From the NCBI RefSeq assembly GCF_054482525.1, contig NZ_CM137006.1: DNA of 64,000 nt, one strand, 5' to 3'. A program made the translations under genes and the position numbers. Below are positions 31,020 through 32,780 of this stretch, piece by piece. Numbering within the stretch: the stretch's first letter is position 1; each line of letters starts with the position of its first letter. A model generated the notes under the pieces. The model made no database searches and was not told the DNA's origin. It saw only the letters and a program-made list of their open reading frames with translations.

Positions 31020-32780
31020 TTGACCATTACGAAACTTGCATGGCGTGACCTGGTTCCTGATACCGATAGCTATCAGGAAATATTTGCTCAGCCACATTTG
31101 ATTGACGAAAACGATCCTTTATTCAGTGATACTCAACCGCGACTGCAATTTGCGCTGGAGCAGTTGCTGCATACGCGAGCATCCTCCTCTTTTATGCTGG
31201 CGAAGGCCCCGGAAGAGTCTGAGTATCTGAATCTTATTGCCGATGCCGCGCGTGCGCTACAAAGCGATGCAGGCCAACTGGTGGGCGGTCACTATGAGGT
31301 TTCCGGGCACACCATCCGCTTACGTAACGCAGTGAGTGCAGATGATAATTTTGCGACTTTAACGCAAGTTGTCGCTGCCGACTGGGTAGAAGCGGAACAA
31401 CTCTTTGGCTGCCTGCGCCAGTTTAATGGCGACATTACCCTGCAGCCAGGTCTGGTGCATCAGGCAAATGGCGGTATTCTCATCATCTCTTTGCGTACAC
31501 TGCTGGCGCAACCTCTGCTGTGGATGCGGCTGAAAAATATCGTTAACCGCGAGCGTTTTGACTGGGTTGCGTTTGATGAGTCGCGCCCTCTCCCCGTCTC
31601 TGTGCCTTCGATGCCATTGAAGCTGAAAGTCATTCTGGTAGGCGAACGCGAATCATTGGCTGATTTCCAGGAGATGGAACCAGAGCTTTCAGAGCAGGCT
31701 ATTTATAGCGAATTTGAAGATACTCTGCAGATTGTCGATGCGGAGTCAGTAAGCCAGTGGTGTCGCTGGGTAACATTGACCGCCAGACATAATCACTTAC
31801 CTGCACCGGGAGCGGATGCCTGGCCGGTACTTATCCGCGAAGCAGCCCGCTACACCGGTGAACAAGAAACACTTCCGCTTAGCCCGCAGTGGATCCTCCG
31901 CCAGTGTAAAGAGGTCGCCTCCCTGTGCGATGGCGACACCTTCTCCGGCGAGCAGCTAAACTTAATGCTACAGCAGCGTGAATGGCGCGAAGGTTTCCTC
32001 GCTGAACGCATGCAGGATGAGATTCTTCAGGAGCAAATCCTGATTGAAACCGAAGGCGAACGCATCGGGCAAATTAACGCCCTATCGGTCATTGAATTTC
32101 CGGGTCATCCACGCGCTTTTGGCGAACCTTCTCGCATTAGCTGCGTTGTGCATATTGGCGATGGTGAATTCACCGACATCGAACGCAAAGCGGAGCTTGG
32201 CGGCAATATCCATGCGAAAGGGATGATGATCATGCAGGCGTTCCTGATGTCGGAACTACAGCTTGAGCAACAGATCCCCTTCTCAGCATCGCTGACATTT
32301 GAGCAGTCATACAGTGAAGTGGATGGCGATAGTGCCTCGATGGCTGAACTCTGCGCCCTGATAAGCGCCCTCGCCGATGTGCCGGTGAATCAGAGTATCG
32401 CTATCACAGGTTCAGTCGATCAGTTCGGTCGCGCCCAGCCGGTCGGTGGTTTAAATGAGAAAATCGAAGGCTTCTTTGCTATTTGCCAGCAACGTGAGTT
32501 AACGGGGAAACAAGGTGTCATTATCCCCACAGCTAACGTTCGCCATTTAAGTCTTCACAGTGAGCTGGTGAAAGCGGTAGAAGAAGGTAAATTCACCATC
32601 TGGGCAGTAGACGATGTGACTGACGCACTGCCGTTATTATTAAATCTGGTGTGGGATGGCGAAGGCCAAACGACGCTGATGCAAACCATCCAGGAACGTA
32701 TCGCGCAAGCATCGCAACAGGAAGGACGTCACCGTTTTCCATGGCCATTACGTTGGCTGAACTGGTTTATTCCGAACTGA
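31020..32780 (+). CDS. ycbZ: YcbZ, Lon-protease-like protein (Lon C-terminal proteolytic domain; no obvious Walker A)
   Basis: 586-aa ORF starting at TTG 31020 ([22 protein letters not shown]...); C-terminal region resembles the Lon S16 peptidase domain. I found no GxxxxGK[ST] motif by eye. Confidence 0.88.

Follow-up and report, generated by a model that had tools for sequence, protein, structure and literature searches.

YcbZ of Escherichia coli: a probable ATP-independent Lon-like protease of the LonC branch that lacks the helical-hairpin extension

LonC and the protease domain of YcbZ

The LonC subfamily of Lon-like proteases was defined in 2012 with an Escherichia coli member included (PMC3391209), which we infer to be YcbZ. 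Its prototype is MtaLonC of Meiothermus taiwanensis, along with TTC1975 of Thermus (MEROPS S16.007; PDB 4fw9, 4fwd, and 8k8v). MtaLonC has no ATPase activity, forms a hexamer, and degrades unfolded substrates independently of ATP (PMC3391209, PMC13069640), and its sensor-1, sensor-2, and arginine finger are reported to be lost. Its degenerate site binds ATPgammaS or phosphate, which affects ring closure, and as a heptamer the protein has a chaperone mode (PMC13069640, PMC3391209). LonC carries a helical-hairpin extension (HHE), described in PMC13069640, that serves substrate recognition and capture as well as chaperone activity (PMC13069640), and its protease domain harbors two insertions, of which CX3GLX(G/E) follows the Lys helix and precedes beta9 and phi-X2-A-phi lies in helix alpha5 (PMC3391209). 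The residue before the catalytic serine, Asp instead of Pro, separates LonB and LonC from LonA (PMC9569914).

We analyzed ycbZ in a window of 64,000 nucleotides of contig NZ_CM137006.1 (assembly GCF_054482525.1), where its neighbors are matP and fabA and its product is 100% identical to YcbZ of E. coli PCN033. The coding sequence and the features of its protease domain are as follows.

31020..32780, + strand: ycbZ coding sequence, 586 codons plus TGA (open reading frame list; PGAP CDS with the same coordinates)
32052..32654, + strand: Lon S16 protease domain, about residues 345-545 (Pfam Lon_C; alignment to MtaLonC 491-691)
32331..32333, + strand: codon (AGT) of the catalytic Ser438 in G-D-S-A-S, aligned to MtaLonC S582
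32460..32462, + strand: codon (AAA) of the catalytic Lys481, aligned to MtaLonC K625
32484..32507, + strand: LonC-specific insertion 1, C489-QQR-E-L-T-G496 (ungapped alignment to MtaLonC C-KAL-G-L-S-G)
32565..32579, + strand: LonC-specific insertion 2, L516-V-K-A-V520 (MtaLonC V-L-E-A-V; phi-X2-A-phi)

An earlier note on this DNA had claimed a Lon-type C-terminal proteolytic region in the 586-aa product, and Pfam Lon_C (PF05362) indeed matched residues 435 to 539 with 40.7 bits (cutoff, 21.1). The GDSA motif begins at residue 436, and alignment with MtaLonC and other relatives, in line with the Lon alignment that the same note had proposed, showed the Ser438-Lys481 dyad to be intact and invariant in 138/138 relatives, as are D437, T463, K400, E428, and Q429. 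With a Lon_C match and a Ser-Lys dyad, the features by which the Lon family (MEROPS S16) is recognized, YcbZ can be assigned to this family by sequence. Asp437 in front of Ser438 follows the LonB/LonC pattern and not that of LonA. Both searches against known structures ranked LonC first: phmmer against PDB gave E values of 2e-57 for MtaLonC, 3e-15 for LonB, and about 1e-4 for LonA, and Foldseek with a YcbZ model of pLDDT 95 gave TM scores of 0.81 to 0.82 for the MtaLonC chamber crystals, 0.71 for TonLonB, and at most 0.41 for LonA. In insertion 1, the E. coli protein has a Glu where the LonC motif has a Gly; the consensus in the family is RGLTG, and C489 is nearly invariant across it.

Archaeal LonB (Thermococcus onnurineus, PDB 3k1j), the second-best structural match, has in common with YcbZ the absence of a LonA-type N domain, the Asp before the Ser, and Pfam AAA_32, but unlike YcbZ it is ATP dependent and has canonical Walker A and B motifs with a membrane-anchoring insertion between them. 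The relic Walker motifs of YcbZ are separated by about 90 residues, the modeled part of which consists of beta-strands and one short helix. We rejected a LonB identity on the basis of the equivalog score (TIGR00764, 85.7 bits against a cutoff of 516.6) and the lack of Walker motifs. LonA (E. coli Lon, or protease La) shares the S16 protease fold and Ser-Lys chemistry with YcbZ, but it differs in having a large substrate-binding domain at its N terminus, a working AAA+ module, and a Pro before the catalytic Ser. The two sequences resemble each other only over a stretch of about 50 to 100 residues that surrounds the active site (E about 1e-4; global TM, at most 0.41). The scores for LonA (NF008053, 28.9 bits against 891; TIGR00763, 31.3 against 608) and Asp437 led us to reject this identity as well. 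The Lon-related BrxL of BREX systems has a Lon-like C-terminal domain in common with YcbZ; a BrxL or defense reading was rejected given TIGR02653 (E of 0.22, 9.8 bits against 628) and a context that is no defense island. AsrA (PA0779) of Pseudomonas aeruginosa, a Lon-like protease that is described as "ATP-dependent," is regulated by RpoH, and takes part in the aminoglycoside response, is presumably a member of the long (about 800 aa) AAA_32 plus Lon_C group surveyed here. If so, both the HHE and a GxxGxG[KR] loop would be expected in it, unlike in YcbZ; we know of no linkage of AsrA to fabA. AsrA and YcbZ, with its erythromycin phenotype, both tie the Lon-like family to ribosome-targeting antibiotics.

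The degenerate AAA-like module and the absent hairpin

The N-terminal part of YcbZ contains the following features.

31191..31259, + strand: relic AAA+ beta1/P-loop/alpha1, residues 58-80 (AF2 model, MAFFT columns, weak hhalign)
31206-31226, + strand: A63-P-E-E-S-E-Y69 in place of the GxxGxG[KR] of relatives (MAFFT columns)
31272..31307, + strand: insertion point of the HHE, residues 85-96, the extension itself being absent (gap mapping on the alignment)
31437..31694, + strand: Pfam AAA_32 (LonB-like AAA domain), residues 140-225, 52.5 bits
31476..31490, + strand: Walker-B-equivalent strand I153-L-I-I-S157 (aligned to MtaLonC GGYLILDA; modeled strand 153-157)

The earlier note had found no GxxxxGK[ST] motif by eye. 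A regex scan of the 586 aa confirmed this, returning no G....GK[ST], [AG]....GK[ST], or GK[ST] and no GK or K[ST] dipeptide, but absence of Walker A from anywhere in 586 aa is the chance expectation and the informative test is the homologous position. In a MAFFT alignment of 138 sequences, long relatives have G63, G66, G68, and [KR]69 in 54 to 56 of 63 cases; the corresponding YcbZ columns are A63, E66, E68, and Y69. The AF2 model of YcbZ shows a strand (58 to 62), a loop (63 to 66), and a helix (67 to 80) with pLDDT of about 90 to 97, and this loop has four residues where a P-loop needs about eight. With hhalign, the N-terminal part gave a collinear but weak match in the P-loop region (E of 0.002, probability 14%), and a full-length profile-profile comparison aligned residues 116 to 572 only. 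The weak hhalign match, the MAFFT columns, and the predicted fold jointly support, but do not prove, that residues 63 to 69 occupy the P-loop position.

The Walker B motif is degenerate as well: I153-L-I-I is followed by S157-L158, so the Asp has given way to a Ser. Among the relatives, 55/63 long forms have D/E at position 157, whereas most short forms have S/P/G there. The AAA_32 match covers profile positions 35 to 124 of 133 only. The domain search that had been proposed thus returned Lon_C and a partial AAA_32 but no intact AAA+ ATP site, and neither of the two outcomes named as contradicting the claim, an intact AAA+ module or the loss of the catalytic Ser or Lys, was observed. Many database labels (RefSeq, UniRef, and JGI: "AAA family ATPase," "endopeptidase La," "Lon-like ATP-dependent protease") nevertheless make YcbZ a true ATP-dependent Lon or AAA family ATPase, and the AAA_32 match and the AAA+-like overall fold are in line with them. 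We consider this hardly credible: Walker A is missing at the homologous position and Walker B lacks its Asp, the LonB and LonA scores given above are far below the equivalog cutoffs, and the nearest characterized relative, MtaLonC, has no ATPase activity. Our data are in agreement with a 2019 paper asserting that YcbZ "lacks ATPase activity" (PMC6510439).

Selection on the gene was assessed from E. coli and Salmonella; since synonymous sites are saturated between them, raw pN/pS and not JC-corrected dN/dS is given. The protease domain has the lowest value (0.057) and the N-terminal 115 residues have the highest (0.27), marking the weakest constraint in the protein. The degenerate AAA-like module (0.14 to 0.27) is under purifying selection, which supports a structural role.

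Long relatives have about 207 extra residues between YcbZ positions 85 and 96, and they match Pfam LonC_helical (PF20437), which has no match in YcbZ at E<=1. Like LonC, YcbZ has an Asp-preceded Ser-Lys dyad, both protease-domain insertions, and a degenerate AAA-like module without canonical motifs, and by analogy it would degrade unfolded substrates without ATP. Unlike LonC, it lacks the type-specific HHE (about 200 residues) and the Walker-A-like phosphate-binding loop of MtaLonC (GPPSLGKHE), it has a Ser where MtaLonC retains the Walker B Asp, it comprises 586 aa compared to 719 to 732, and it is mesophilic and paired with fabA. Judged from its sequence, YcbZ is more degenerate than LonC. 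It is not simply the LonC of E. coli, because the extension used for substrate recognition and chaperoning is absent, and the mechanisms of MtaLonC can therefore not be transferred wholesale. Since the MtaLonC ligand influences ring closure, YcbZ must also have another way of assembling, or its rings may not be the same.

From sequence, model, and analogy taken together, YcbZ is probably a cytoplasmic serine protease of the LonC branch that would use the Ser438-Lys481 dyad on an AAA-like scaffold, with neither ATP use nor an HHE; the ATP-independent Lon-like protease proposed in the earlier note is supported to this extent, LonC being the closest structure. The protein would self-compartmentalize and cleave through its dyad without ATP, the N-terminal 340 residues keeping the AAA+ alpha/beta-plus-lid fold only as a structural ring in which the P-loop would have been swapped for the short acidic loop 63 to 69 and the Walker B Asp for Ser157. 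With the HHE missing, it would correspond to the bare LonC degradation chamber. By analogy with MtaLonC, we expect a hexameric ring and proteolysis limited to unfolded polypeptides or to peptides diffusing into the chamber.

Two alternatives concern this mechanism. YcbZ could mainly be a nonproteolytic scaffold or chaperone, in practice a pseudo-protease, holding for example ribosome- or RNase E-associated factors; the chaperone mode of the MtaLonC heptamer and two-hybrid signals with RNase E through YcbZ residues 565 to 586 would fit. We regard this as quite improbable, as none of the catalytic and substrate-groove residues varies among 138 representatives, constraint on the protein is strongest in the protease domain, and LonC chaperone activity depends on the very HHE that YcbZ lacks. 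Alternatively, having shed its own recognition and energy modules, the chamber could rely on a separate adaptor or trans-acting unfoldase. The missing HHE and ATP site, the conservation of an N-terminal motif (L11, P13, Q39-P-R41) and of the C-terminal helix outside the catalytic core, and the retention of a homolog by an endosymbiont whose genome has only 585 kb, a hint at a particular housekeeping function, all speak for such a partner. However, fabA is the only conserved candidate gene in 8 loci, MtaLonC degrades unfolded proteins unaided, and we found no interaction data for this idea in the literature, so that we consider it unlikely.

The TTG start and conservation of ycbZ

31020..31022, + strand: TTG start codon (in-frame stop upstream; same TTG in Salmonella)

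The initiation at TTG claimed in the earlier note is backed by several lines of evidence. An in-frame stop at 31005, 15 nt 5' of the TTG at 31020, makes this codon the earliest possible start; later candidates are codons 27, 49, and 59. RefSeq/PGAP calls the same TTG, and Salmonella ycbZ has it too, with near-identical upstream sequence and with the first 29 nt of the open reading frame identical to those of E. coli. Furthermore, homologs at 46 to 50% identity start in the same alignment column, with L11, P13, and Q39 conserved. Upstream of the TTG we found no Shine-Dalgarno-like purine run, and a scan of 30300 to 33500 gave no match to the sigma-70 consensus promoter.

The rarity of TTG as a start, the lack of a Shine-Dalgarno sequence, and the weak constraint on the N-terminal 115 residues could be taken to mean that the frame or its start is an annotation artifact, with a decaying gene or an internal start at Met59. 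We give this practically no credence. The gene is full length in 5425/5426 complete E. coli genomes and encodes exactly 586 aa in Escherichia, Salmonella, Citrobacter, Enterobacter, and Leclercia, on which grounds a pseudogene was rejected; residues before Met59 are conserved, residues 1 to 58 are modeled with high pLDDT, Salmonella shares the TTG, and the protein has been detected by proteomics (PMC9508795). The taxa over which we describe the short form come mainly from the literature and from matches in Enterobacteriaceae.

Linkage to fabA and the C-terminal arrest motif

32688..32780, + strand: C-terminal tail, residues 557-586, with arrest motif W579, L580, P585, N586 plus TGA
32766..32820, + strand: fabA FadR/FabR operator region, overlapping ycbZ codons 583-586 and the stop
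32849..33367, + strand: fabA, downstream of ycbZ and co-oriented

Ribosomes stall at the end of YcbZ with Pro585 in the P site and Asn586 in the A site, as documented by profiling, reporters, tRNA-seq, and cryo-EM (PMC8848927). The weak start (TTG, no Shine-Dalgarno sequence) and this arrest peptide probably keep YcbZ output low. The earlier note had called the substrates poorly defined, and the same 2022 paper states that the molecular function of YcbZ "remains uncharacterized" (PMC8848927). Published genetics offer some indications: ycbZ mutants show more stop-codon readthrough, which is rescued by complementation, and erythromycin selects for mutants that have lost the function. From these data we infer that the in vivo role of YcbZ touches translation.

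The gene is also closely tied to fabA. The gap between the two is 68 bp with no terminator, and a ycbZ-fabA operon has been described (PMC4161252). The region 32766..32820 is identical to the fabA EMSA probe TTTATTCCGAACTGATCGGACTTGTTCAGCGTACACGTGTTAGCTATCCTGCGTGC (PMC4259882), so that the stop codon and arrest-peptide codons of ycbZ overlap the FadR/FabR operator, and the block after the TGA is conserved in Salmonella and in two further loci, L002 and L007. Among the 11 homolog loci sampled for gene context, the homolog lies directly upstream of fabA in 8/8 HHE-less loci, whose other neighbors differ, compared to 0/3 HHE-bearing relatives.

These observations could mean that YcbZ serves membrane-lipid or envelope homeostasis together with fabA and not translation quality control. 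The resistance of the mutants, which includes EDTA, beta-lactams, and efflux-type substrates, would then reflect an altered envelope composition or fabA expression. This reading draws on the clade-restricted adjacency, the operon, and the ycbZ stop inside the fabA operator. However, the adjacency may only reflect promoter sharing, because the 3' end of ycbZ contains the fabA operators, the readthrough rescue and erythromycin selection point to translation, and we found no direct lipid phenotype in the literature. We therefore see an envelope role as a less probable option, to be kept in mind beside the role in translation. Because ycbZ and fabA are cotranscribed, the resistance phenotypes could partly be polar effects on fabA.

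In a rough NJ tree, homologs without P-loop and HHE group together (49 leaves, rooted on a canonical-P-loop long form); a midpoint root fell inside the divergent short group. The tree was built without bootstrap, and the branch leading to the group is short (0.04), so that monophyly is only suggested. A more speculative idea, which we find doubtful, is that YcbZ-type proteins are a distinct gammaproteobacterial, chamber-only offshoot of LonC that is functionally coupled, through the protease or through translation of the 3' end, to unsaturated-fatty-acid and envelope homeostasis. Step by step, this lineage would have lost the HHE (with 116, about 80, and finally 0 to 16 inserted residues), the Walker B Asp, and the P-loop that binds phosphate, and it would have become fixed upstream of fabA. 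If true, this would account for mutants being resistant to EDTA and to multiple drugs as well as for the survival of the gene in a 585-kb endosymbiont genome.

That YcbZ is a Lon-like protease lacking the ATPase is correct and was already known: ycbZ is listed among the core genes, LonC has been recognized as an ATP-independent subfamily since 2012, and the missing ATPase had been stated (PMC6510439). The widespread database names that make the protein an "AAA family ATPase," an "endopeptidase La," or an "ATP-dependent protease" are hence misleading. What the comparison adds is that the absent HHE turns substrate selection by YcbZ into a testable question, and that the tight, clade-specific fabA linkage and the arrest codons overlapping the operator give concrete hypotheses for a protein that evolution experiments have repeatedly connected, through its loss, with resistance to macrolides and multiple drugs.

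The ycbZ gene and its start codon

The earlier note described a 586-aa product initiated at a TTG codon, and both the ORF and the PGAP annotation agree with this:

31020..32780, + strand: ycbZ, a single ORF of 586 codons with a TTG start; PGAP gives the identical start and end

The gene is 100% identical at the DNA level to that of E. coli PCN033, and among 5426 complete E. coli genomes 5425 contain a match (≥80% coverage). According to the PGAP annotation, it lies between matP (divergent) and fabA (co-oriented), with rmf and pqiCBA further out. This identity and these neighbors thus place the window in the ompA-matP-ycbZ-fabA-rmf region of the E. 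coli chromosome. An in-frame stop precedes the TTG by 15 nt, while the alternative starts at codons 27, 49, and 59 all lie 3' of the conserved L11 and P13, and codons 49 and 59 (not 27) also 3' of the conserved Q39. The TTG shares its alignment column with the Met start of several homologs, and Salmonella ycbZ also uses TTG, behind an almost identical leader lacking a Shine-Dalgarno sequence. Orthologs in Salmonella, Citrobacter, Enterobacter, Leclercia, and other Enterobacteriaceae are each exactly 586 aa long.

Two longer neighboring products, OmpA of 374 aa (upstream GTG; 29182-30306; 350 aa in RefSeq) and PqiB of 566 aa (upstream TTG; 34420-36120; 546 aa in RefSeq), were rejected as artefacts of first-start ORF calling. 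A perfect 9-bp inverted repeat, TTCCTGATA-CCGATAGC-TATCAGGAA, flagged as terminator-like, is found at 31054-31079, 35 nt inside ycbZ. A hairpin (stem GAUAGC/GUUAUC, loop GAAA) is predicted at the equivalent Salmonella site despite several substitutions, and both species share an identical stretch over ORF nt 1-29, with no Shine-Dalgarno sequence ahead of the start. The hairpin may serve to control translation initiation, or it may be there by coincidence.

The missing ATP site of YcbZ and its likeness to the LonC degradation chamber

A Pfam search on YcbZ returned Lon_C (residues 435-539), in line with the C-terminal Lon-type proteolytic region proposed previously, and a partial AAA_32 ("LonB-like AAA"; residues 140-225, profile positions 35-124 of 133); no intact ATP-binding module was found. 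The Lon-type Ser-Lys active site is intact, with GDSA occurring once, at residue 436. NCBIfam equivalog models for LonB, LonA, and BrxL all scored far under their cutoffs. A HMMER survey of 1.84 billion cluster representatives, searched in full, gave 3102 relatives with E ≤ 1e-3, among them 1320 that reached E ≤ 1e-30; the best 150 form three length classes: short (~540-610 aa), mid (611-730 aa), and long (780-845 aa).

A regex scan of the 586 residues found no G....GK[ST], [AG]....GK[ST], or GK[ST], nor any K[ST] dipeptide. Because the absence of a Walker A motif would be meaningless in a random protein of this length, we checked the homologous position directly in a MAFFT alignment of 138 sequences (A3), including 63 long and 39 short forms.

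ATP-site positions in the A3 alignment
P-loop columns 63/66/68: G/G/G in 54-55 of 63 long forms; A63/E66/E68 in YcbZ
Column 69 (Walker A Lys): K/R in 56 of 63 long forms; Y69 in YcbZ
Column 70: mostly H/R, T in 5, among the 63 long forms; L70 in YcbZ
Walker B Asp position: D/E in 55 of 63 long forms; S157 in YcbZ

Together with the negative scan, these columns bear out the lack of a P-loop that the earlier note had judged by eye. Among short forms, column 69 is commonly Tyr (19/39), and the Walker B position is mostly S, P, or G. Profile-profile comparison aligned the main block (YcbZ 116-572 with long-form 316-790) at 100% probability. The N-terminal match (1-96 with 1-97) was collinear but weak (E 0.002, probability 14%); in it, the invariant Q39/R41 of both groups superpose and the P-loop lands on YcbZ 63-69. 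In an AlphaFold2 model built on the 138-sequence alignment (mean pLDDT 95.5, pTM 0.92), strand 58-62, a four-residue loop (63-66), and helix 67-80 indicate that the beta1-loop-alpha1 of the P-loop fold is retained, with a short and acidic loop; the Walker-B-equivalent strand is 153-157. The AAA-like fold is present and its ATP site absent. Four long relatives (P0074, P0079, P0106, and P0139; 812-837 aa) carry a complete canonical Walker A, GxxGxGK[ST], and all four lack the Walker B catalytic Glu (DA, DV, or NA instead). P-loop decay across the family is a gradient rather than two states.

The closest PDB sequence by phmmer was Meiothermus taiwanensis LonC (MtaLonC), the prototype ATP-independent Lon-like protease (2e-57; YcbZ 140-547 to LonC 296-691), followed by LonB (3e-15) and LonA (~1e-4). 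Structural comparison ranked the hits as listed below.

Foldseek comparison of the YcbZ model with the PDB
MtaLonC chamber crystal structures: TM 0.81-0.82; ~25% identity; 581-603 ordered residues
Full-length LonC cryo-EM models: TM 0.69-0.71 (query-normalised), 0.57-0.58 (target-normalised)
Archaeal LonB (3k1j): TM 0.70-0.71
LonA: TM ≤0.41

These scores and its 586 aa make YcbZ similar in size and shape to the ordered LonC degradation chamber. Both protease-domain insertions that define LonC, CX3GLX(G/E) and phi-X2-A-phi (PMC3391209), align ungapped with YcbZ, as C489-QQR-E-L-T-G496 and L516-V-K-A-V520, respectively. An Asp precedes the catalytic Ser in YcbZ, LonB, and LonC but not in LonA (PMC9569914).

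YcbZ nevertheless differs from MtaLonC in two respects. MtaLonC retains a Walker-A-like GPPSLGKHE and a Walker-B-like GYLILDA and binds ATPgammaS by ITC (PMC3391209); crystal and cryo-EM structures show a phosphate ion in its P-loop, and phosphate or nucleotide influences its ring assembly. YcbZ has neither motif. It also lacks the helical-hairpin extension (HHE), a type-specific LonC insertion forming a basket over the ring, for chaperone activity and substrate recognition (PMC13069640). Between YcbZ residues 85 and 96, long forms have ~207 and mid forms ~76 extra residues, and Pfam LonC_helical (PF20437) does not match YcbZ, though it matches long relatives. By analogy with MtaLonC, YcbZ would assemble into a ring and cleave already unfolded polypeptides independently of ATP. 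The missing ATP site and the proximity to MtaLonC thus support the earlier reading of a probable ATP-independent Lon-like protease.

Linkage to fabA and the 3' end of ycbZ

In all eight loci examined for HHE-less homologs (P0001, P0010, P0013, P0016, P0017, P0034, P0040, and P0059), and in Salmonella, fabA lies 3' on the same strand, with a gap of 53-124 bp, while the remaining neighbors vary. This adjacency was absent from the three loci of HHE-bearing relatives examined (P0041, P0043, and P0051; 8/8 versus 0/3, Fisher p ~0.006). In E. coli, ycbZ and fabA are known to form an operon (PMC4161252). In a rough neighbor-joining tree of the shared core, with a long form that carries a canonical P-loop as the root, the fabA-linked proteins all fall within one 49-leaf group, subtended by a short branch without bootstrap. 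GxxGxG[KR] occurs in 0/49 of these leaves compared to 57/89 outside, and Walker B Asp in 4/49 compared to D/E in 76/89. At the HHE site, members of this group retain insertions of anything between 116 and 0 residues, suggesting that the extension was lost in steps.

The block matP(-)/ycbZ(+)/fabA(+)/rmf(-), at 30382-33604 in the window, recurs at the distant homolog loci L002, L007, L010, and L012. The rmf gene, encoding ribosome modulation factor, is often convergent with fabA; in the window, both share a bidirectional hairpin terminator (33395-33419).

Strong ribosome stalling has been reported at Pro585/Asn586, the final two YcbZ codons (PMC8848927), and this motif is encoded unchanged in the window. 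The final four codons (TTT ATT CCG AAC) and the TGA fall within 32766-32820, the fabA FadR/FabR operator probe (PMC4259882), so that a transcription-factor site places an additional constraint on the arrest codons. The block TGAtc(g/c)gacttgtt...gcgtacacgtgt, immediately 3' of the stop, is kept in Salmonella, at L002 (a 56%-identity homolog), and at L007 (matP-ycbZ-fabA-rmf context). Between E. coli and Salmonella, pS is 0.43 in the tail (32670-32780, codons 551-586) versus 0.72-0.79 elsewhere in ycbZ, consistent with the arrest motif or promoter elements of fabA imposing an overlapping constraint on the DNA or RNA.

Selection, physiological role, and place in the Lon family

Between E. coli and Salmonella, pN/pS of ycbZ is 0.12 overall, with 0.057 in the protease domain, 0.135 in residues 116-340, and 0.265 in residues 2-115. 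Even the dead ATPase module is under purifying selection, in line with what a structural ring would be expected to show. A YcbZ-type protein (P0003, WWO97731.1; 583 aa, 49% identity) is kept in the insect endosymbiont Candidatus Dasytiphilus stammeri, whose genome is ~585 kb, a retention that hints at a housekeeping role.

The function of YcbZ was still "uncharacterized" in 2022 (PMC8848927). As described in citing papers, stop-codon readthrough increases in ycbZ mutants and is rescued by complementation (Gagarinova 2016). Erythromycin selected loss-of-function alleles in two independent evolution studies, with cross-resistance to chloramphenicol, tetracycline, puromycin, beta-lactams, EDTA, and other compounds, and two-hybrid data suggested RNase E contact via residues 565-586. 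Together with the stalling, these reports favor, with modest confidence, a role in translation-linked protein quality control.

The product label differs by genome ("AAA family ATPase" or "Lon protease family protein"), and the orthologs P0152-P0270 are also called "endopeptidase La", "Lon protease", or "Lon-like ATP-dependent protease". Judged from the sequence, the ATPase and ATP-dependent wording is unsupported, and according to PMC6510439 YcbZ has no ATPase activity. When LonC was defined in 2012, gamma-proteobacterial homologs were noted and E. coli was said to have more than one Lon subfamily (PMC3391209). In the literature searched, YcbZ was not found named together with LonC or the HHE, and a chamber-only, P-loop-less, fabA-linked account of it may not yet be in print. 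The finding was known before, both for the gene and for the family; the chamber-only description reveals no new kind of system and is a refinement of the known picture.
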